Shown here: positions 4,149 through 54,968 of the stretch, in pieces
Layout: each line of letters starts with the position of its first letter
Numbering within the stretch: position 1 is the stretch's first letter
Assembly (NCBI RefSeq): GCF_024223415.1
Contig: NZ_CP100500.1
Direction: 5' to 3' (one strand)
DNA: 64,000 nt
Source of the DNA: Escherichia coli
GTDB taxonomy: Bacteria; Pseudomonadota; Gammaproteobacteria; Enterobacterales; Enterobacteriaceae
Translations under genes and position numbers: made by a program
The notes under the pieces: model-generated
What the model was told of the DNA's origin: nothing
The model's input: only the letters and a program-made list of their open reading frames with translations
Databases searched by the model: none

Positions 4149-4184
4149 ATAAAAAAGCCCCCGGAAGGTGATCTTCCGGGGGCT
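4149..4184 (-). terminator. his attenuator terminator (GC-rich hairpin plus U-run) between hisL and hisG
   Basis: Plus strand aaaaaagcccccggaaggtgatcttccgggggct; on minus strand a 12-bp stem followed by a T-run. Confidence 0.85.
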
Positions 4185-4247
4185 TTCTCATGCGTTCATG
4201 CACCACTGGAAGATCTGAATGTCTTCCAGCACACATCGCCTGAAAGA

Positions 4248-4298
4248 CTAGTCAGGATGATGGTGATGATGGTGGTGTTTAAATTGAACGCGTGTCAT
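4248..4298 (-). CDS. hisL: his operon leader peptide with seven consecutive His codons
   Basis: Minus strand ATGACACGCGTTCAATTTAAACACCACCATCATCACCATCATCCTGACTAG = MTRVQFKHHHHHHHPD. Confidence 0.95.
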   Translation of the reverse strand: MTRVQFKHHHHHHHPD

Positions 4299-4366: not shown

Positions 4367-4547
4367 GGGCTTTTTTATATATTTTATGGCAATGGATTTG
4401 TTTAATGAATGAGCGGGGAAAGGAGGGGGCTAAGAGGACTGTCCTCTAACCTGACGGCACCAAAAATAGCGAAGCCTGGATTTTCGTCTCACTGACAATA
4501 TCTTGATCTACAAACTAATTAATAAATAGTTAATTAACGCCCATCAT

Positions 4548-4565
4548 TGTACAATGAGCTGTACA
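4548..4565 (+). promoter_or_regulatory. Palindromic operator with two TGTACA hexamers in the yefM-yoeB promoter
   Basis: tgtacaatgagctgtaca about 15 bp upstream of yefM ATG; SD gaggag follows. Confidence 0.6.
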
Positions 4566-4580
4566 TAAGAGGAGATTGAT

Positions 4581-4832
4581 ATGCGTACAATTAGCTACAG
4601 CGAAGCGCGTCAGAATTTGTCGGCAACAATGATGAAAGCCGTTGAAGATCATGCCCCGATCCTTATTACTCGTCAGAATGGAGAGGCTTGTGTTCTGATG
4701 TCACTCGAAGAATACAACTCGCTGGAAGAGACGGCTTATCTACTGCGCTCCCCCGCTAACGCCCGGAGATTGATGGACTCAATCGATAGCCTGAAATCTG
4801 GCAAAGGAACGGAAAAGGACATCATTGAGTGA
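4581..4832 (+). CDS. yefM: Antitoxin YefM
   Basis: 83-aa [53 protein letters not shown]...; 4-nt overlap with yoeB. Confidence 0.93.
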
Positions 4833-5083
4833 AACTAATCTGGTCTGAGGAATCATGGGACGATTATCTGTACTGGCAGGAAACAGATAAGCGAATTGTT
4901 AAAAAGATCAATGAACTTATCAAAGATACCCGCAGAACGCCATTTGAAGGTAAGGGGAAGCCAGAACCCCTGAAACATAATTTGTCAGGTTTCTGGTCCC
5001 GACGCATTACAGAGGAGCACCGTCTGGTATACGCGGTTACCGACGATTCACTGCTCATTGCAGCATGTCGTTATCATTATTGA
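4829..5083 (+). CDS. yoeB: mRNA interferase toxin YoeB
   Basis: 84-aa ORF ending ...[26 protein letters not shown]; coupled to yefM. Confidence 0.93.
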
Positions 5084-5165
5084 ACAGATTCATTCATAGA
5101 ATGAATTGTCAGTTTTGATACGCTAGCGTAGCCTTATAGATCTAAGGTGTATCAGGAGATAACGG

Positions 5166-5990
5166 ATGAAAAAGGTCGCAATTGTCGGGTTAGGGTGGTT
5201 AGGCATGCCGCTGGCGATGTCACTTTCAGCGCGAGGCTGGCAAGTCACCGGGAGTAAAACCACACAAGATGGTGTCGAAGCGGCCCGAATGAGTGGCATT
5301 GATAGCTATCTGCTTCGCATGGAGCCTGAGTTAGTTTGCGATTCTGACGATCTGGATGCCCTGATGGATGCCGACGCGCTGGTCATTACGCTTCCGGCAC
5401 GTCGTAGCGGCCCCGGCGATGAGTTCTATTTACAAGCGGTACAAGAGTTAGTGGATAGCGCGCTGGCCCATCGTATTCCCCGCATTATTTTTACCAGCTC
5501 AACGTCTGTCTATGGCGACGCGCAAGGCACGGTGAAAGAAACCACCCCGCGTAATCCGGTAACCAACAGTGGACGAGTATTAGAAGAACTCGAAGACTGG
5601 CTGCACAATTTACCCGGTACTTCGGTCGATATTCTGCGTCTTGCGGGGCTGGTCGGACCGGGACGTCATCCCGGACGCTTCTTTGCCGGAAAAACCGCGC
5701 CTGATGGTGAACATGGTGTTAATTTAGTCCATTTAGAAGATGTTATTGGCGCTATCACTCTGTTGTTACAGGCACCTAAAGGCGGACACATCTATAATAT
5801 ATGTGCGCCAGCTCACCCTGCGCGTAATGTTTTCTATCCGCAGATGGCCCGTTTACTGGGGCTGGAACCTCCGCAGTTCAGAAATAGTCTGGACAGCGGC
5901 AAAGGTAAGATTATTGATGGCAGTCGGATTTGTAATGAACTGGGATTTGAATACCAGTATCCCGATCCGCTGGTAATGCCGCTGGAGTAA
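5166..5990 (+). CDS. yeeZ: NAD-dependent epimerase/dehydratase-family protein
   Basis: 274-aa ORF with N-terminal Rossmann motif VAIVGLGWLGMPLA; synteny. Confidence 0.8.
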   Translation: MKKVAIVGLGWLGMPLAMSLSARGWQVTGSKTTQDGVEAARMSGIDSYLLRMEPELVCDSDDLDALMDADALVITLPARRSGPGDEFYLQAVQELVDSALAHRIPRIIFTSSTSVYGDAQGTVKETTPRNPVTNSGRVLEELEDWLHNLPGTSVDILRLAGLVGPGRHPGRFFAGKTAPDGEHGVNLVHLEDVIGAITLLLQAPKGGHIYNICAPAHPARNVFYPQMARLLGLEPPQFRNSLDSGKGKIIDGSRICNELGFEYQYPDPLVMPLE

Positions 5991-6965: not shown

Positions 6966-7231
6966 AGAAAAATTATTATGGCAAGCCTCTCATTCTCTTG
7001 TCATTTCCCCCCCATTTAGGCACAATGCGCCGCTGTCAAAAAATGACTAAAAACCGACGTTTCATCAGCGTCGGTTATTTTTTGCTTCAAACCAATCATT
7101 CATACCAAGAGGCCGGGCTTCGTACCGGATAGATATTTACTAAAAATCGACAGTTGTTGTCGCTGAGGAATCCAAAAAAATGGGGCAATTTTTTGCTTAC
7201 GCGACGGTTATCACCGTAAAGGAGAATGACC

Positions 7232-8768: not shown

Positions 8769-9729
8769 ATGTTTTCAATGATATTAAGCGGGCTAATTTG
8801 TGGTGCTCTGCTGGGATTTGTCATGCAGCGTGGGGGTTTTTGCGTTAATTCAGGCGGGCCTACTGACTTACGAAGCCGGGGCGTTCCCGTGGCTTGGTAC
8901 TGTTATAGGTGGGTATATCTTCGGGCTGGGAATTGTTCTGGCGGGTGGATGTGCCACCGGGACCTGGTATCGCGCGGGTGAGGGATTGATCGGCAGTTGG
9001 ATCGCGCTTTTCACTTATATGGTGATGAGTGCGGTGATGCGTTCTCCACACGCCAGTGGTTTAAATCAAACCTTGCAGCACTACACTACTGAACATAACT
9101 CTATTGCTGATACTTTTAATTTGTCTGTGTGGCCGTTGGTTGCCGTTTTGCTGGTGATAACGCTCTGGGTGGTGATGAAAGAGTTGAAGAAGCCAAAACT
9201 GAAAGTCGCGACCTTACCGCCGCGCCGAACCGGGATCGCTCATATTCTGTTTGAAAAACGCTGGCATCCCTTTGTCACTGCTGTACTCATCGGTTTGATT
9301 GCGCTTTTAGCCTGGCCCCTGAGTGAAGCAACCGGACGCATGTTTGGGTTAGGAATCACTTCCCCAACGGCCAATATTCTGCAATTTCTGGTCGCGGGTG
9401 ACGTGAAATACATTAACTGGGGCGTTTTCCTGGTGTTAGGGATCTTCGTGGGGTCATTTATTGCAGCCAAAGCGAGCCGTGAGTTCCGCGTTCGCGCAGC
9501 TGATGCACAAACAACAGTACGTAGCGGGTTAGGTGGTGTACTGATGGGCTTCGGTGCCAGTATTGCAGGTGGTTGCTCTATCGGTAATGGACTGGTTATG
9601 ACTGCAATGATGACCTGGCAGGGCTGGGTTGGCCTTGTATTTATGATTCTCGGAGTCTGGACTGCGTCCTGGCTTGTGTATGTTCGACCGCAGCGTAAGG
9701 CGCGACTGGCAACTGCTGCGGCAAATTAA
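8769..9729 (+). pseudogene. yeeE: YeeE/YedE-family thiosulfate transporter (TsuA) reading frame split by a frameshift or internal deletion
   Basis: ORF 8769..8981 (MFSMILSGLICGALLGFVMQRGGFC...) and ORF 8800..9729 are in different frames; downstream frame carries two GGC(A/S)xG repeat motifs; 961-nt span is not a multiple of 3. Confidence 0.6.
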
Positions 9730-35460: not shown

Positions 35461-35667
35461 TTACGGACGGGACTGTGCAATACGCGCCTGCAGCCAGGCT
35501 TCCACTTCACTTTTCAGCCAGCGGGAGCTGCGCCCCATTTTGATGGGCGCAGGAAAGCCCCCATCTTTGATGAGTTTGTCAAACCACTTATCGGTTAGGC
35601 CGGTCAGTTGAGTGATAAACGCCATGTCGACCATCTGGTCATCCATCAGCGAAACTGGGGTAGCCAT
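35461..35667 (-). CDS. alpA: AlpA-family prophage transcriptional regulator
   Basis: ORF 35461..35739; about 68-aa product from MATPVSLMDDQMVDMAFITQLTGLTDKWFDKLIKDGGFPAPIKMGRSSRWLKSEVEAWL. Confidence 0.75.
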   Translation of the reverse strand: MATPVSLMDDQMVDMAFITQLTGLTDKWFDKLIKDGGFPAPIKMGRSSRWLKSEVEAWLQARIAQSRP

Positions 35668-37192: not shown

Positions 37193-37762
37193 ATGACCTA
37201 CAAATACAACCCCTTCTGGCAGCAACGTATTCGTGAGACGGTGCGGCACGCACTGAATGTTCATCCCCGCCTGACGGCATTGCGGGTTGACCTGCGTTTC
37301 CCGGATGTACCGGCAGCAACGGACGCAGCTGTGATATCCCGCTTCATCAATGCCCTGAAAGCCCGAATCGACGCTTACCAGAAACGTAAGCATCGGGAAG
37401 GTAAACGCGTGCATCCCACCACCCTGCATTACGTCTGGGCCCGGGAGTTTGGGGAGTGCAAAGGTAAAAAACACTATCACCTGATGCTGCTGGTTAACCG
37501 GGATACCTGGTGTCGTGCCGGTGATTACCGTGCTCCGGGATCACTGGCCGGGATGATTAAACAGGCGTGGTGCAGTGCCCTGGGAGTGGATGTCGGGTGC
37601 CATGCCACGCTGGTGCATTTTCCGGCCTGGCCGGCGGTGTGGCTGGAACGCGATGATGACACTGGCTTTCAGCAGGTGCTGGAACGTGCTGACTATCTGG
37701 CGAAGGAACATACCAAAGCTCACTGCACCGGTGAGCGCAATTTTGGCTGTAGCCGGAGTTGA
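37193..37762 (+). CDS. Hypothetical island protein, possibly YagK/YfjJ (inovirus Gp2-like) family
   Basis: ORF 37157..37762; SD ggaga precedes ATG 37193 (MTYKYNPFWQQRIRETV...). Confidence 0.45.
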   Translation: MTYKYNPFWQQRIRETVRHALNVHPRLTALRVDLRFPDVPAATDAAVISRFINALKARIDAYQKRKHREGKRVHPTTLHYVWAREFGECKGKKHYHLMLLVNRDTWCRAGDYRAPGSLAGMIKQAWCSALGVDVGCHATLVHFPAWPAVWLERDDDTGFQQVLERADYLAKEHTKAHCTGERNFGCSRS

Positions 37763-38015
37763 GCACGACTGGCGCGCCAATATCCGGCAAACCAAAAGTA
37801 TGGGTTGTTGTCTGGCGGCAACGATGTATCCACTCGCCCACTGACTGTTTTTTACGTCAGTGTTCCATTGTGTGACAACCACAGTGCTGTAACAGCAACC
37901 AGCCTGCTTTACCCAAACTCCAGTCCAGATTTTAACTGAACCGCCATTCACACCCTGACCACGCTGCCCGTACCGGGACGGCTGTTGCCTGCGTGTCGTC
38001 TGGCGGCTGAGGAAT

Positions 38016-38423
38016 ATGACTATGTACGCAAAATCCTTTATCGCTCTTGATGGCAACGGACGTCTGACGGGCGCCCGTACTGCACAGGCCGCACCTTATG
38101 CTAACTACACCTGCCACTTGTGTGGCAGTGCACTCAGATACCATCCGCAATACGACACTGAACTTCCCTGGTTTGAACACACTGACGACAGGCTGACAGA
38201 GCACGGTCAACAGTGCCCTTATGTCAGGCCGGAGCGCAGAGAAATACAGTTGATTAAACGTCTGCAGCAATTCGTACCGGATGCCTTACCCGTGGTGCGT
38301 AAAGCCAGCTGGCACTGCAGACAATGTCACCACGATTATTATGGGGAGCGGTACTGCACACACTGCCAGACCGGAGGATTCAGTATTCCCCGGACAACTC
38401 AGGAGGAAATATGCGAATTCTGA
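38016..38423 (+). CDS. Cys-rich zinc-ribbon protein, paralog A (unknown function)
   Basis: 135 aa with CHLCG...PWFEH...CRQCHHDYYGERYCTHCQTGG. Confidence 0.5.
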   Translation: MTMYAKSFIALDGNGRLTGARTAQAAPYANYTCHLCGSALRYHPQYDTELPWFEHTDDRLTEHGQQCPYVRPERREIQLIKRLQQFVPDALPVVRKASWHCRQCHHDYYGERYCTHCQTGGFSIPRTTQEEICEF

Positions 38424-38821
38424 ACTGTTATATGGCGAATGACAGCAAAGGCCATTTTGTTACGGCGAAAGAAGCAGCGAAGCACAACCGCCAGGACGTT
38501 TTGTGCTGTGTGTCCTGTGGATGCCCGTTAACACTTCAGCGGGGCAATGACGGACAACCACCGTGGTTTGAACATGACCAGATGACTGTCGCTGAGAAAA
38601 TCCTGCTGCGATGCACCTGGCTTGACCCGGCAGAGAAAGAGGCCCGTCGTTTGCATCTGCAGGGTATGACGGTTCCGGATTATACGGTGAAGGTGAGAAA
38701 GTGGTTTTGTGTGATGTGTGACGAAGATTATGAAGGAGAAAAGTGCTGCCCGCGTTGTGGTACCGGGGTATACAGCAGGGAGGGGGGGCTGCAGGAAGGC
38801 AACTGGAAGGATAGGAACTGA
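38411..38821 (+). CDS. Cys-rich zinc-ribbon protein, paralog B (unknown function)
   Basis: ORF 38324..38821; perfect SD aggagg before ATG 38411 (MRILNCYMAND...); CCVSCGC...PWFEH...CVMCDEDYEGEKCCPRCGTG mirrors paralog A. Confidence 0.5.
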   Translation: MRILNCYMANDSKGHFVTAKEAAKHNRQDVLCCVSCGCPLTLQRGNDGQPPWFEHDQMTVAEKILLRCTWLDPAEKEARRLHLQGMTVPDYTVKVRKWFCVMCDEDYEGEKCCPRCGTGVYSREGGLQEGNWKDRN

Positions 38822-39006: not shown

Positions 39007-40790
39007 ATCTGTCAACGACGGATGAAAAGTGGTTCTTCCGCAACCTGGGTGGAAGAAAATGGATGAAACTTTCTGGCGAACAAGGATCTAAGCTGTTTTA
39101 AGTTATGGGCAACGCAATGCACTCTCTTAAGACACTTCTACAGTTACCTTGCGGATGGCGATGCAGTCGACAAATTATTAGCTCTGACGGTATAACCCTC
39201 CATCTCCACGGAAAACGCAAAACAGCACAATGTCCTGAATGCTTTAAGCGTAGCGACTCTGTTCATAGTTGTCGTCGGCGCCGGATACAGCATCTACCCT
39301 GCTCAGGGCAGACGCTATGGCTTGTATTTTCCGTCCGCCACTGGTACTGCCGTAACCCGGCTTGTTCACGTAAAATTTTTGCCGAGTCGCTTGCTCCCTT
39401 CGCCGGTTCACACCAGCAGTCTTCACAGGCGTTACAAAATTTACAACGTCAACTGGGATTAATAGCTGGAGGTGAGGCTGGAAAACGGGCTGCAACGGCA
39501 GCGGGTCTCCGTTGCAGTGCTGATACTCTTCTTCGCAGGGTATCAATACCCCGGAGACGAAACAGTCAGGCGCGCCTCATGTCGGTATTGATGAGTGGGC
39601 GTGGCATCGGGGCCACTGCTGCGGTATGTTAATAGTCAATCTTGATACTCACCGTCCCCTCGTCCTGCTTCCCGGCCGTGATCAGCGTACGCTGGCGACC
39701 TGGTTCAGAAAATATCCGGAAATACAGGTTGTCTCGCGTGATCGCAGTGGAGTCTATGCGACAGCAGCACGTGAAGGTGCACCTCAGGCCAGACAGGTGG
39801 CCGATCGATGGCACCTGCTAAAAAATATTGGTGATGAGCCTGAACGAATGATGTACAGACATATGCCTCTGATACGTCTTGTTGTCAGAGAGTTATCACT
39901 GAAGAAATCACCTGAGCCAGAAATATCTGTGCCTGTAGCATCGCTCCGTCGTCTGGAACGCCTTAAACAGCACATCCGCAAAAAACGGCATCAGCGTTGG
40001 ACAGAGGTTATGGCCCTGCATAACAAGGGATGTAGTTTCAGGGAAATATCCCGTATTACAGGCCTGTCGCGAGTGACAGTCAGTCGCTGGGTGGGTTCAG
40101 GAACATTCCCTGAAATGTCAACTAGGCCTCCAAAGCGAGGGCTTCTGGACCCATGGAGGGAGTGGTTAAAAGAGCAACGAGAATGTGGTAATTATAACTC
40201 CGGCCGGATATGGCGGGAAATGGTGGCCAGGGGGGTTACAGGCAGTGAAACCATCGTCAGGGATGCTGTTGCCAAATGGCGTAAAGGCTGGATCCCACCG
40301 GTTACTACTGCCGCAAGACTTCCTTCAGTGTCCCGGGTAAGCCGCTGGTTGATGCCCTGGAGAATAATCAGGGGTGAAGAAAATTATGCTTTCCGATTTA
40401 TTAGTCTGATGTGTGAAAAAGAACCGGAGTTGAAAATAGCGCAGCAACTGGTACTCGAGTTCTACCGTATTCTGAAAACCTAAAATAAATCACAGCTAAG
40501 CAGCTGGTTCACTCGGGTCCACGAAAGCGGCTCAGCAGAACTTCGGTGCGTAGCTGCGGGGATGGAAGCTGATGCTGCGGCTATATGTGAGGCAATCAGC
40601 AGTCGCTGGAGTACTGGTGTTGTCGAAGGTCATGTAAATCGCCTGAAGGTGCTGATACGCCAGATGTATGGTCGAGCCGGACTTGAACTACTTAGGCGGA
40701 GGGTAATGAGTCCACTGGCATGAAAATCTTCACCCAGGTTGCGGAAGAGCCACTTTTGCACTGTTCGTGACAGTATGGCCTTTATGTACT
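39007..40790 (+). mobile_element. ISL3-family-like insertion sequence with a frameshifted transposase; ends approximate
   Basis: Imperfect terminal inverted repeats containing GG(T/C)TCTTCCGCAACCTGGGTG at 39031 and (reverse) 40751; transposase split into frames 39105..39632, 39626..40483 and a C-terminal piece ending ...EGHVNRLKVLIRQMYGRAGLELLRRRVM (~40722). Confidence 0.5.
39105..40483 (+). pseudogene. Disrupted ISL3-like transposase (at least two frameshifts)
   Basis: Zinc-finger N-terminus (CPECFKRSDSVHSCRRRRIQHLPCSGQ), ADRWHLLKN segment and HTH-like segment lie in different frames. Confidence 0.5.
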
Positions 40791-50659: not shown

Positions 50660-50735
50660 TGGCTCCTCTGACTGGACTCGAACCAGTGACATACGGATTA
50701 ACAGTCCGCCGTTCTACCGACTGAACTACAGAGGA
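50660..50735 (-). tRNA. asnV: tRNA-Asn (anticodon GUU)
   Basis: Reverse complement is TCCTCTGTAGTTCAGTCGGTAGAACGGCGGACTGTTAATCCGTATGTCACTGGTTCGAGTCCAGTCAGAGGAGCCA; -35 TTGACA / -10 TAATAT upstream on minus strand. Confidence 0.95.
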
Positions 50736-50990
50736 ATCGTGTGAACGGGGCGCATATTAATGGCAGTGCATGGTGATGTCAAAGGGTGAAATGCATTTTT
50801 TTGTTTGTTTGCTGCCAATTTCAACAAAGTGGTGAGCTTTCAATCTTATTGGGTAATGAACCATCGTGGTGCATACCCTCCTTTTATAGGGCAGGTGAAT
50901 GCGACTGCAGATAAAAAGAGCCAATGACGAATCTATCATAATCTCTTATTTGACAGTTGGTTAGCTTGCGCATCAACGCCAAAATAGAAC

Positions 50991-51006
50991 TGGCAAGCAT
51001 CTTGCA
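50991..51006 (+). promoter_or_regulatory. Sigma-54-type promoter element upstream of nac
   Basis: TGGCAagcatcTTGCA matches GG-N10-GC, about 55 bp upstream of nac ATG. Confidence 0.7.
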
Positions 51007-51061
51007 TTCTGGTTGTAAGTAATGGCGGCACTTGGGCCGACTCTTAAAAACCGGAGGCAAC

Positions 51062-51979
51062 ATGAACTTCAGACGCCTGAAATACTTCGTAAAAATTGTA
51101 GATATTGGTAGCCTGACCCAGGCTGCTGAAGTATTGCATATCGCACAACCAGCGCTCAGCCAGCAGGTTGCCACACTGGAAGGTGAGTTTAATCAACAAC
51201 TTTTGATTCGCACAAAACGGGGCGTTACGCCAACTGACGCCGGAAAAATTCTCTATACCCATGCGCGGGCCATTTTACGTCAGTGTGAGCAGGCCCAACT
51301 GGCGGTGCATAACGTTGGTCAGGCATTATCGGGGCAAGTCTCGATTGGCTTTGCGCCAGGAACCGCTGCGTCATCCATCACCATGCCCTTATTACAGGCG
51401 GTTCGCGCTGAATTCCCGGAGGTCGTTATCTATCTTCATGAAAATAGCGGTGCAGTGCTTAACGAAAAACTGATAAATCACCAACTCGATATGGCGGTGA
51501 TTTATGAGCATTCCCCTGTGGCTGGTGTATCCAGTCAGGCTTTACTGAAAGAAGATCTTTTCCTGGTAGGGACTCAAGATTGTCCGGGGCAAAGCGTTGA
51601 TGTTAATGCTATTGCGCAAATGAACCTCTTTCTTCCCAGTGATTACAGTGCTGTTAGACTTCGTGTTGATGAGGCTTTTTCCCTACGGCGACTCACGGCA
51701 AAAGTCATTGGTGAAATTGAGTCTATTGCCACGCTTACCGCAGCGATTGCCAGCGGCATGGGCGTTGCAGTATTACCCGAATCGGCCGCGCGTTCGTTAT
51801 GTGGCGCAGTAAACGGGTGGATGTCACGCATTACCACACCTTCCATGAGTCTCTCTTTGTCATTAAATTTACCCGCCAGAGCGAACTTATCACCACAGGC
51901 ACAGGCAGTGAAAGAGTTGTTAATGTCAGTGATGAGTTCTCCAGTGATGGAAAAAAGGCAGTGGCAATTGGTGAGCTAA
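51062..51979 (+). CDS. nac: Nitrogen assimilation control protein (LysR family)
   Basis: ORF 51032..51979; 305-aa product from MNFRRLKYFVKIVDIGSLTQAAEVLHIAQPALSQQV. Confidence 0.93.
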   Translation: MNFRRLKYFVKIVDIGSLTQAAEVLHIAQPALSQQVATLEGEFNQQLLIRTKRGVTPTDAGKILYTHARAILRQCEQAQLAVHNVGQALSGQVSIGFAPGTAASSITMPLLQAVRAEFPEVVIYLHENSGAVLNEKLINHQLDMAVIYEHSPVAGVSSQALLKEDLFLVGTQDCPGQSVDVNAIAQMNLFLPSDYSAVRLRVDEAFSLRRLTAKVIGEIESIATLTAAIASGMGVAVLPESAARSLCGAVNGWMSRITTPSMSLSLSLNLPARANLSPQAQAVKELLMSVMSSPVMEKRQWQLVS

Positions 51980-52080
51980 GCGTTATATCGGGATGGAATA
52001 AGATGCGGGTTTTTATTATTTGTTATGCCGGGCATTAGACTTTAACAATAACGGAAAATCTGAACTGCCCGGAGTTTACC

Positions 52081-53031
52081 GTGAATTTCCAACAACTAAA
52101 GATAATCCGCGAGGCTGCACGTCAGGATTACAACCTGACAGAGGTTGCGAATATGCTTTTTACCTCACAGTCCGGCGTCAGCCGTCATATTCGGGAACTG
52201 GAGGATGAACTTGGCATCGAAATATTTGTTCGACGAGGTAAGCGACTGCTGGGCATGACTGAACCGGGCAAAGCATTACTGGTCATTGCTGAACGTATTC
52301 TGAATGAAGCCAGTAATGTTCGTCGGCTTGCAGACCTGTTTACCAACGATACGTCTGGCGTTCTCACTATTGCAACGACGCATACTCAGGCACGTTATAG
52401 TTTGCCAGAGGTCATTAAATCTTTTCGCGAACTTTTCCCGGAGGTTCGGCTCGAGCTAATCCAGGGGACGCCACAGGAAATTGCGACGTTGTTGCATAAT
52501 GGTGAAGCTGATATTGGTATCGCCAGCGAGCGTTTGAGTAATGACCCGCAGCTCGTCGCCTTCCCGTGGTTTCGTTGGCACCATAGTTTGCTTGTTCCAC
52601 TCGATCATCCCTTGACGCAAATTACACCATTGACGCTGGAATCAATAGCGAAGTGGCCGTTAATCACTTACCGACAGGGGATTACGGGGCGCTCACGTAT
52701 TGATGACGCATTTGCCCGCAAAGGTTTGCTGGCAGATATTGTATTAAGTGCGCAGGATTCTGATGTCATTAAAACCTATGTTGCTCTTGGGCTTGGGATC
52801 GGAATAGTTGCCGAACAATCCAGCGGTGAACAAGAGGAAAAGAATTTAATCCGCCTGGATACGCGGCATCTTTTTGATGCTAATACTGTCTGGTTGGGAC
52901 TGAAGCGAGGACAACTTCAGCGTAACTATGTCTGGCGCTTTCTGGAACTTTGTAATGCAGGGCTTTCAGTTGAGGATATCAAGCGGCAGGTGATGGAAAA
53001 CAGTGAAGAGGAAATTGATTATCAGATATAG
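52081..53031 (+). CDS. cbl: CysB-like LysR-family regulator Cbl
   Basis: 316-aa ORF MNFQQLKIIREAARQDYNLTEVANMLFTSQSGVSRHIRELE... Confidence 0.93.
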   Translation: MNFQQLKIIREAARQDYNLTEVANMLFTSQSGVSRHIRELEDELGIEIFVRRGKRLLGMTEPGKALLVIAERILNEASNVRRLADLFTNDTSGVLTIATTHTQARYSLPEVIKSFRELFPEVRLELIQGTPQEIATLLHNGEADIGIASERLSNDPQLVAFPWFRWHHSLLVPLDHPLTQITPLTLESIAKWPLITYRQGITGRSRIDDAFARKGLLADIVLSAQDSDVIKTYVALGLGIGIVAEQSSGEQEEKNLIRLDTRHLFDANTVWLGLKRGQLQRNYVWRFLELCNAGLSVEDIKRQVMENSEEEIDYQI

Positions 53032-53068
53032 CAAAAAGCCCGCTATAAAAGCGGGCTTTTCAGAAATT

Positions 53069-53144
53069 TGGCTCCTCTGACTGGACTCGAACCAGTGACA
53101 TACGGATTAACAGTCCGCCGTTCTACCGACTGAACTACAGAGGA
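53069..53144 (-). tRNA. asnU: tRNA-Asn (anticodon GUU)
   Basis: Identical 76-nt tRNA-Asn sequence on minus strand; terminator hairpin of cbl directly upstream at 53034-53062. Confidence 0.95.
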
Positions 53145-53304
53145 ATCGCTGTTGAGGCACATCTTAACGGCGAAAAATCTTTTGTCAAACCCGATTTTTA
53201 ATTTTCCCAACTGTTTGCCGTTTCTATCAACAGTTTGTTGCATTTGCAGACAATTTGTTGGCGAAAATCTTTGCAGCTTTGCTGATTCTCCCTCATTATT
53301 TGAA

Positions 53305-54792
53305 ATGTGGTTTCACTTTCTGCAATTAAGGTCGGCTTTGAATATCTCCTCTGCTTTACGCCAGGTTGTTCACGGCACTCGCTGGCACGCTAAACGCAAG
53401 AGCTACAAAGTGTTGTTCTGGCGCGAGATAACCCCGCTTGCTGTTCCTATCTTCATGGAGAATGCCTGTGTCCTGTTGATGGGGGTTCTGAGCACTTTTC
53501 TGGTCAGCTGGCTGGGAAAAGATGCGATGGCCGGCGTGGGATTGGCGGACAGCTTCAATATGGTCATTATGGCTTTTTTTGCTGCTATCGATCTTGGTAC
53601 TACTGTCGTTGTGGCATTTAGTCTCGGTAAGCGGGATCGACGACGAGCGAGGGTGGCGACGCGGCAGTCATTGGTGATCATGACGTTGTTTGCCGTACTG
53701 TTGGCAACGATTATTCATCATTTTGGCGAGCAAATTATTGATTTTGTCGCGGGTGATGCCACGACAGAAGTTAAAGCACTGGCGTTGACTTATCTGGAGC
53801 TGACGGTACTCAGTTATCCAGCAGCTGCCATCACTTTGATTGGTAGCGGGGCACTTCGTGGTGCAGGGAATACGAAAATACCGCTACTGATTAACGGTAG
53901 CCTGAATATTCTTAATATTATTATTAGCGGCATATTGATTTACGGCCTTTTCTCCTGGCCGGGACTGGGATTTGTCGGGGCTGGGTTGGGGTTAACCATT
54001 TCTCGTTATATTGGCGCAGTGGCAATTTTGTGGGTGCTGGCGATTGGTTTTAATCCTGCGCTAAGGATTTCGTTAAAGAGCTATTTTAAACCGCTGAATT
54101 TTAGCATTATCTGGGAAGTCATGGGGATTGGTATTCCCGCGAGTGTCGAATCAGTGTTATTTACCAGTGGTCGGTTATTAACCCAAATGTTCGTTGCCGG
54201 GATGGGGACCAGTGTTATTGCCGGAAATTTTATCGCGTTTTCAATTGCGGCTCTTATCAACTTACCCGGAAGTGCGCTCGGCTCTGCTTCTACGATCATT
54301 ACAGGCCGAAGGTTGGGTGTAGGACAGATAGCGCAAGCAGAGATTCAGTTGCGGCATGTGTTCTGGCTTTCCACTCTTGGATTAACGGCCATCGCCTGGC
54401 TAACGGCTCCCTTTGCCGGGGTTATGGCATCGTTTTACACCCAGGATCCACAGGTTAAACATGTCGTTGTGATTCTGATTTGGCTAAATGCTTTATTTAT
54501 GCCTATTTGGTCTGCCTCATGGGTGCTACCCGCTGGATTTAAGGGTGCTCGCGATGCACGTTACGCCATGTGGGTTTCTATGTTGAGCATGTGGGGTTGC
54601 CGGGTTGTAGTCGGTTATGTGCTGGGAATCATGCTTGGCTGGGGTGTGGTTGGTGTCTGGATGGGAATGTTTGCCGACTGGGCTGTGCGGGCCGTGCTGT
54701 TTTACTGGCGAATGGTTACTGGACGTTGGCTGTGGAAATATCCTCGACCTGAGCCGCAAAAGTGTGAAAAAAAGCCAGTTGTGTCGGAATAA
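53305..54792 (+). CDS. yeeO: MATE-family multidrug/flavin efflux transporter YeeO
   Basis: ORF 53152..54792; 495-aa product from MWFHFLQLRSALN (53305); multi-TM. Confidence 0.85.
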   Translation: MWFHFLQLRSALNISSALRQVVHGTRWHAKRKSYKVLFWREITPLAVPIFMENACVLLMGVLSTFLVSWLGKDAMAGVGLADSFNMVIMAFFAAIDLGTTVVVAFSLGKRDRRRARVATRQSLVIMTLFAVLLATIIHHFGEQIIDFVAGDATTEVKALALTYLELTVLSYPAAAITLIGSGALRGAGNTKIPLLINGSLNILNIIISGILIYGLFSWPGLGFVGAGLGLTISRYIGAVAILWVLAIGFNPALRISLKSYFKPLNFSIIWEVMGIGIPASVESVLFTSGRLLTQMFVAGMGTSVIAGNFIAFSIAALINLPGSALGSASTIITGRRLGVGQIAQAEIQLRHVFWLSTLGLTAIAWLTAPFAGVMASFYTQDPQVKHVVVILIWLNALFMPIWSASWVLPAGFKGARDARYAMWVSMLSMWGCRVVVGYVLGIMLGWGVVGVWMGMFADWAVRAVLFYWRMVTGRWLWKYPRPEPQKCEKKPVVSE

Positions 54793-54845
54793 ACGACAAA
54801 GTGCAGATTATTTCAGCAAACGATTTCAAATTTAAAAAACAGGCT

Positions 54846-54874
54846 TTGACATTGTGGATGAGCGTCGCTAATAT
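54846..54874 (+). promoter_or_regulatory. Sigma-70 promoter of tRNA-Asn (TTGACA-17-TAATAT)
   Basis: TTGACAttgtggatgagcgtcgcTAATAT about 19 bp upstream of the tRNA 5' end. Confidence 0.75.
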
Positions 54875-54892
54875 TCGCCTCGTTCTCACGAT

Positions 54893-54968
54893 TCCTCTGT
54901 AGTTCAGTCGGTAGAACGGCGGACTGTTAATCCGTATGTCACTGGTTCGAGTCCAGTCAGAGGAGCCA
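54893..54968 (+). tRNA. asnW: tRNA-Asn (anticodon GUU)
   Basis: TCCTCTGTAGTTCAGTCGGTAGAACGGCGGACTGTTAATCCGTATGTCACTGGTTCGAGTCCAGTCAGAGGAGCCA. Confidence 0.95.

Follow-up and report, generated by a model that had tools for sequence, protein, structure and literature searches.

What might a pair of small, cysteine-rich proteins contribute to the genomic island that encodes them? The question is raised by two overlapping genes in a stretch of Escherichia coli DNA (contig NZ_CP100500.1, assembly GCF_024223415.1; the whole stretch of 64,000 nucleotides (nt) that was analysed is referred to below as the window). They are named here ZnR-A and ZnR-B, ZnR being our own label for any member of the protein family. 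The ZnR genes are real and selected, they specify non-catalytic proteins with two Cys/His clusters, and they are fixed in an operon with genes for a YagK/YfjJ (inovirus Gp2-like) protein and an AlpA-family helix-turn-helix (HTH) protein in the CP4-type islands of Enterobacterales. Islands of this type carry adhesins, toxin–antitoxin pairs, anti-restriction genes and phage-defence systems, and in one case, on a Klebsiella plasmid, RND efflux cargo; how they excise, replicate and move is poorly understood.

Gene pair and protein family

Profile searches returned strong matches for both proteins. The DUF7828 domain (Pfam PF25165) spans residues ~2–89, with E = 2.8e-31 for ZnR-A (model positions 1–87 of 87) and 7.9e-31 for ZnR-B (positions 2–86 of 87), and is followed at residues ~93–128 by Zn_ribbon_11 (PF11682, formerly DUF3279; E = 1.3e-9 and 5.7e-18, respectively). 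Among 48 aligned relatives, 47 also matched DUF7828 at E ≤ 0.001. The RefSeq proteins identical to the pair (WP_000270974.1 and WP_001221617.1) already bear the names 'putative zinc ribbon protein' (ZnR-A) and 'zinc-ribbon domain-containing protein' (ZnR-B), the Gp2-like neighbour being called 'inovirus Gp2 family protein'. The original prediction, made from the letters of the window, had recognised no known family, and in this it was mistaken: both are full-length members of a family already in Pfam and RefSeq, and they do not represent a new kind of system. What remains of interest is a very prevalent, uncharacterised backbone module with a possible link to an HUH-type protein. NCBIfam gave no significant match to either ZnR-A or ZnR-B. 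Of the ZnR entries in TrEMBL, many carry the name 'DNA-directed RNA polymerase, beta subunit/140 kD subunit', apparently a misannotation that has been propagated, and a single one carries that of 'Competence protein', reflecting a similarity to CoiA_N that is described below.

The two proteins had been proposed to be paralogs, and BLASTP agrees, aligning them at 31% identity over 125 residues (E = 3e-16). A common layout of CxxCG, PWFEH, CxxC and Y-x-GE(R/K)-x-C-x2-C-x-TG can be read in both, the series being CHLCG..PWFEH..CRQC..YYGERYCTHCQTG in ZnR-A and CVSCG..PWFEH..CVMC..YEGEKCCPRCGTG in ZnR-B. Most of the gene geometry described originally also stands, namely the start of ZnR-B at ATG 38411, the perfect AGGAGG that ends 4 nt before it, and the 13-nt overlap, which closes with the ZnR-A stop codon TGA at 38421–38423. 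The exception is the start of ZnR-A, which is probably not ATG 38016 but the ATG 6 nt downstream, at 38022 (MYAKSF...), because the GAGGA at 38009–38013 lies 8 nt from the latter and only 2 nt from the former, the NCBI prokaryotic genome annotation pipeline (PGAP) also chose 38022, all ZnR-A orthologs begin with MYAKSF, and the equivalent of ATG 38016 is absent in strain PSS-15. The ~95 nt leading up to this start (37927–38021) are nearly invariant among E. coli copies, whereas the rest of the spacer between the Gp2-like gene and ZnR-A is diverged and rich in indels in those same copies, with an indel difference of ~90 nt. The leader may be a promoter or operator. Its RNA showed no significant fold (z = −0.40), scans of the region for promoters and terminators gave background levels only, and local repeats looked like chance and were set aside.

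Both open reading frames (ORFs) are coding genes and not chance ORFs, since each has a Pfam match at E ~ 1e-31, the ratio of non-synonymous to synonymous substitution rates (dN/dS) for ZnR-A is 0.14–0.30 among E. coli copies, and orthologous pairs in the same A→B order occur in other genera. The original prediction had allowed that the frames might prove unconserved or noncoding; A→B pairs were instead found in at least seven other Enterobacterales genera, and ZnR-A is under purifying selection. The Gp2-like gene gave a dN/dS of 0.15–0.17. It is scarcely credible that the pair are functionless, decaying remnants stranded in a cryptic island without an integrase. The window island (17185–45723) is indeed eroded, with many IS66 and ISL3 elements and pseudogenes around the module and no integrase seen between those coordinates, and many truncated or chimeric family members occur in databases. 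However, both frames are intact and are identical in many genomes (a 1.8-kb query with both genes was matched at 100% identity in S88 and many others), the predicted zinc ligands are conserved across genera, and the Shine–Dalgarno sites and the overlap are kept in distant genera. An overlap of the same 13 nt is found in Tenebrionibacter, Siccibacter, an uncultured Enterobacteriaceae metagenome-assembled genome (MAG) and a Klebsiella plasmid island; in other E. coli copies it is 4 nt.

Distribution and island context

The 806-nt ZnR pair was detected in 3818 of 5426 complete E. coli genomes, so that ~70% of them carry at least one copy of the module. The number of places per genome has a median of 2 and a maximum of 7. 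The 1.8-kb segment comprising the Gp2-like gene, ZnR-A and ZnR-B was present in 3806. A profile search of 1.84 billion representative proteins yielded 260 clusters at E ≤ 0.001, nearly all of them stand-alone proteins of 120–160 residues. Matches in AFDB50 were only to family members, from the genera Salmonella, Citrobacter, Klebsiella, Serratia, Pectobacterium, Enterobacter, Cedecea, Yersinia, Brenneria and Budvicia, all of the Enterobacterales. ZnR is a chromosomal-island gene family, since a tblastn search with ZnR-A of 50,697 phage genome records (INPHARED) gave no match, and family members turned up in no more than 33 of 72,556 plasmid records, among them several of 0.8–4.9 Mb.

The window covers the CP4-44 locus of a strain that is near to S88 but distinct from it, with the his operon through tmaR on one side of the island and cobUST, three tRNA-Asn genes and yeeO on the other. 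Related loci were gathered from exact matches to known proteins, from a genome scan across species, and from hits in E. coli and in plasmids. In all 24 fetched loci with at least ~0.6 kb of upstream sequence, a Gp2-like gene and alpA, in either order, precede the ZnR genes, although the loci are not independent, as near-identical contigs and several E. coli copies are among them. The module begins with the Gp2-like gene and alpA, continues with one to three ZnR genes and sometimes a second Gp2-like gene, and gives way to variable cargo and a tyrosine integrase. Cargo genes include OLD+UvrD (Gabija-like), Kiwa, type I restriction–modification (RM), SMEK/CTD10 conflict genes, an ars operon and an RND efflux pump. 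The idea that the pair forms a duplicated Cys-rich, presumably metal-binding module in the backbone of an integrative element is thereby upheld. A look at its distribution across CP4-like elements had been suggested, and the module does recur in the fetched Enterobacterales loci.

Two arrangements of alpA were seen. The E. coli copies have the gene upstream and in the opposite orientation, separated from the Gp2-like gene by an Hha-like gene and a small membrane zinc-ribbon ORF; most other genera have it between the Gp2-like and ZnR genes, all on one strand. A divergent operon specifies a ~300-aa protein of unknown function, a YeeP-like GTPase, an HTH/WYL protein, an antirestriction gene, DUF932, and RadC/CbtA–CbeA; the GTPase, DUF932 and antirestriction genes of the window are at 17.9–26.3 kb. 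Two motifs, the HUH-like HYHxxLL and Y-L-x-K, are conserved in Gp2-like proteins of the first position, and the window copy keeps HYH and Y-L-A-K. A second Gp2-like gene was observed directly after ZnR-B in four loci (e.g., L016, 7906–8454; L027, 10284–10850; L033, 12900–13466), and in the L016 and L027 proteins, which were aligned, the HUH-like His pair and the Tyr of the YxxK motif are lost, suggesting an inactive paralog. Work on Pseudomonas islands has named intY, alpA, an inovirus Gp2-like protein and RadC as the likely core of a widespread island class, with core functions that are unknown (10.1101/2024.08.29.610337). Apart from that genomic-island preprint, the literature found on YagK/YfjJ and the island backbone consists of annotation mentions.

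The A→B tandem is old and has been retained. It is found in Tenebrionibacter, Siccibacter, the uncultured Enterobacteriaceae MAG, Trabulsiella (with B disrupted), Serratia, Yersinia proxima, Budvicia and the Klebsiella plasmid island, but many islands have a single ZnR gene, so that the pair is common and not obligatory. The two positions have had different histories. In a neighbour-joining tree the first-position ZnR-A proteins form a clean clade, and the E. coli copies are 86–91% identical, whereas the second position holds at least three different types. The second gene in E. coli is either B1, as in the window ('MRILNCYMAND...'), or B2 ('MNGIKTGLGITP...'; at 9384–9809 in L026 and 9387–9812 in L027), and B1 and B2 are only 31–35% identical in otherwise similar modules. 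A graded series of B2/B1 chimeras is present in databases (P0023, P0030, P0032, P0038 and P0039), and could reflect gene conversion between island copies or assembly artefacts. One fusion protein (P0084) joins two DUF7828 domains to a single ribbon; it is found on several contigs, with another ZnR gene preceding it.

Such a cassette-like second position, together with the one to three tandem paralogs per island, a mean identity of 29% within the family, and a dN/dS of 0.73 between ZnR-B and its nearest allele (on only 22 differences), might be taken to mean that ZnR proteins are agents of conflict, either anti-defence factors or helpers that manipulate the host, in which protein-binding zinc modules diversify and change in copy number under pressure from their targets. 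The defence cargo nearby (Gabija-like OLD+UvrD, Kiwa and type I RM) would fit. We regard this as decidedly unlikely. PADLOC-DB gave no match to ZnR-A and only a non-significant one to ZnR-B (PDC-S64, E = 0.067), PHROGs likewise gave none for ZnR-A and one that is not credible for ZnR-B (E = 0.039), and the family is absent from the phage genomes searched. ZnR-A is under clear purifying selection, and the recognisable anti-restriction genes (Antirestrict/ArdB-like, DUF932 and RadC) belong to the other, divergent operon. The context points to the Rep-like/AlpA module rather than to that operon across the island.

Protein anatomy and candidate roles

Conservation across the 48-member alignment (residues numbered as in ZnR-A) is concentrated in a small set of positions: C31, C34, F51, H53 and C99 are invariant, C65, C102, C112 and C115 are at least 98% conserved, and W97 and G108 at least 94%. 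Because of these conserved Cys and His residues, an N-terminal C2HC cluster (CxxC...WFEH...C) and a C-terminal C4 ribbon (WxCxxC...YxGxKxCxxCxTG) were assigned as putative zinc sites. Structure models of the single proteins, which had been proposed along with the original prediction, were made with AlphaFold2. From the 48-member alignment, ZnR-A was modelled as two confident domains and a low-confidence linker, with a mean predicted local distance difference test score (pLDDT) of 85 and a predicted template modelling score (pTM) of 0.58. The N-domain (88–95 per 10-residue block) runs in the order beta-beta-alpha, knuckle, beta-hairpin and short helix, and beyond it come a helix at residues 72–84, a low-confidence stretch (58–75) and then the ribbon (84–94). 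The pTM is as expected for a model of two domains on a flexible tether. The model of ZnR-B drew on 6 sequences and scored lower (pLDDT 70.7). Searches of Pfam, NCBIfam and PDB revealed no catalytic domain.

Outside the family, a likeness to CoiA was detected. The ZnR N-domain resembles, remotely, the putative zinc finger at the N-terminus of that protein in Bacillus: hhalign comparisons with two CoiA N-termini gave probabilities of 93.8% (E = 1.7e-7) and 73.5% (E = 3e-5) over 50 columns, compared with 36% for an RPB9 control, and CoiA_N (PF25164) was matched in Pfam by 9 of the 48 members, all below threshold (best E = 1.3e-3). In CoiA, a small putative zinc finger precedes a PD-(D/E)XK domain, and the protein is a single-stranded DNA endonuclease (10.1101/2024.02.06.579203). 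The likeness extends over the N-terminal ~50 residues, which share a beta-beta-alpha unit, CxxCG, a Leu, then (H/W)F(A/E)H and a further Cys, although the first His of the CoiA HFAH is replaced by Trp in ZnR. Beyond this the two part company. The nuclease domain (PF06054) was not matched by ZnR-A, ZnR-B or the 48 relatives, which in place of it and the CoiA C-terminal domain have a helix and the C4 ribbon, and ZnR proteins end ~45 residues past the linker. Their genes, moreover, lie in an integrative island of Enterobacterales and not in a competence regulon.

Two other small zinc proteins were compared. The Ogr protein of phage P2 and the Delta protein of P4 satellites are zinc-finger activators of late genes, Delta being a tandem duplication of the Ogr module. 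ZnR proteins are likewise small, non-catalytic, Cys-rich, putative zinc proteins of P4-related elements, and the duplication within Delta is echoed by the tandem ZnR genes. However, no sequence similarity was detected (Ogr_Delta was not among the Pfam matches of ZnR-A, ZnR-B or the 48-member alignment), the Cys spacing differs from the CxxC-x22-CxxxxC of Ogr_Delta, ZnR has two putative zinc sites as opposed to one, and the operon context is another. RPB9/TFS proteins share a layout of two zinc-binding hairpin modules with a linker of ~30 residues between them, but the likeness is one of layout only, as the first site of ZnR is C2HC and carries an extra N-terminal beta-beta-alpha unit. Homology to RPB9 was considered and rejected, the PDB profile match being marginal (E = 0.02), the hhalign value being that of the control above, and the Foldseek probability not exceeding 0.02.

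These comparisons bear on the possibility that ZnR proteins regulate transcription, either alongside AlpA or at a later step than it, with the cargo, integrase or excision genes or the divergent operon as targets, in a role like that of Ogr and Delta. The adjacency to alpA in a single operon in most genera, at the border of the variable cargo, would suit such a role, as would small, non-catalytic proteins with two Cys/His clusters, the nearly invariant leader of ZnR-A, and even the marginal two-zinc-ribbon resemblance to RPB9. We nevertheless consider it doubtful, if a serious candidate. Neither Ogr_Delta nor any other transcription-factor family of Pfam was matched among the 48 members, and they have no HTH; the RPB9 signal is below significance; and the proteins are near-neutral (median isoelectric point 7.4, with the net charge of each domain near 0), which is atypical of strong DNA binders. 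The fusion with Gp2-like domains, and the adjacency to them, would be left unexplained.

The reading that we tentatively favour, while holding more doubt than confidence in it, is that ZnR proteins serve the excision and replication module of the island as zinc-dependent factors, either accessory to it or conferring specificity. It is based on the strict synteny, on the adjacency to Gp2-like genes and one fusion, on the link to CoiA_N, and on a gene geometry suited to translational coupling. The fusion (P0200) consists of a ZnR protein and a degenerate YagK/YfjJ-like C-terminus (residues 141–454; phmmer E = 3e-12). In the mechanism envisaged, ZnR proteins would bind the island DNA (possibly where it is single-stranded or structured, as would be expected close to a nicking protein of HUH type), the Gp2-like protein, or both, and would direct or license the action of that protein once AlpA has switched the island on. 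ZnR-A could then be a common subunit and ZnR-B a cassette-like, variable partner, with the overlapping frames holding the two in fixed proportion.

Several observations weigh against a role as accessory factors. NRZ14408 has the same A type (89% identical) behind a very different Gp2-like protein (24% identical), so that ZnR-A does not co-vary tightly with the Gp2-like protein upstream. The P0200 fusion comes from one short contig of one sample, and neither the HUH nor the Tyr motif is present in its Gp2-like part. That YagK/YfjJ proteins act as nucleases is in turn only deduced from motifs, the many islands with a single ZnR gene imply that a heterodimer is not obligatory, and the near-neutral charge described above is as awkward for DNA binding here as it is for a regulator. 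Finally, a full-text literature search found no paper that names either Pfam family.

It could be speculated further that the pair is the specificity component of a rolling-circle-type machinery, in which, once AlpA has driven excision, a zinc-dependent A/B hetero-oligomer recruits the YagK/YfjJ protein with its HUH motif to an origin on the island, or licenses it there. 'Cryptic' CP4-type islands could on this account replicate or be mobilised, and the swappable second subunit would set incompatibility or specificity among the several island copies that coexist in one E. coli genome. As a whole this extension is unlikely. If AlpA and the Gp2-like HUH protein are indeed the working partners of ZnR proteins, the latter would provide an experimental handle on the excision, replication and movement of these islands.

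Features of the window and related loci

The features of the window are listed in Table 1. The His leader, STnc240 and the tRNA-Asn genes are ordinary core-genome context.

Table 1. Coordinates of the ZnR gene pair, its signals and other features of the window.
Feature	Position (nt)	Strand	Remarks and basis
ZnR-A	38022..38423	+	133 aa; DUF7828 and Zn_ribbon_11; ORF, Pfam, PGAP start
ZnR-B	38411..38821	+	136 aa; paralog of ZnR-A with the same two-domain architecture; ORF, Pfam, BLASTP
ZnR-A/ZnR-B overlap, 13 nt	38411..38423	+	Geometry suited to translational coupling; sequence
Perfect Shine–Dalgarno AGGAGG of ZnR-B	38401..38406	+	Within the 3' end of ZnR-A; sequence
Ribosome-binding site GAGGA of ZnR-A	38009..38013	+	8 nt before ATG 38022; sequence, alignment
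Leader of ZnR-A, ~95 nt	37927..38021	+	Alignment
YagK/YfjJ 'inovirus Gp2 family' gene	37193..37762	+	First gene of the module; ORF opens at GTG 37157, PGAP start 37193; phrog_25019, E = 6.5e-41
AlpA-family HTH gene	35461..35667	-	Annotation and locus comparison
Zinc-ribbon ORF unrelated to DUF7828, 67 aa	36793-36996	-	CxxC...CxxC, then a hydrophobic C-terminal helix
ISL3-family transposase pseudogene	39105..40724	+	Directly downstream of the pair; marks the eroded cargo/integrase side of the island
His operon leader	4149-4272	-	Rfam
Enterobacterial small RNA STnc240	7011-7085	+	Rfam
Three tRNA-Asn genes	50660-54968		

In the CP4-44 of strain K-12, the Gp2-like and ZnR genes are entirely absent. 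The pseudogenes yoeG and yoeH of that island were considered as possible ZnR remnants and rejected, as blastn and tblastn found no similarity. The window island also holds genes for a patatin-like phospholipase, an RdcB-family protein and a dynamin-family protein, as well as the GTPase block (~20.8–26.3 kb, mapped from S88). The 67-aa zinc-ribbon ORF, which lies upstream of and divergent from the Gp2-like gene, is conserved in E. coli copies and is annotated as 'zinc-ribbon domain-containing protein' in strain C11.

Two of the related loci deserve mention. In L029, the divergent operon opens, ahead of the GTPase gene, with a gene for a 456-aa protein (4547–5917, minus strand) that matches an ad hoc hidden Markov model of Gp2-like proteins, and the '~300-aa unknown' genes found at that position may be related to YagK/YfjJ. 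L033, from the Klebsiella pneumoniae plasmid pRWS291.s3 (63209–87610), is a complete island backbone on an IncFIB/IncHI1B plasmid. It reads cbtA...DUF932...WYL and then, divergently, Gp2, AlpA, ZnR-A/B, the second Gp2-like gene and DUF2913, and the cargo it carries, an RND efflux operon, bears the flag of a predicted resistance gene.

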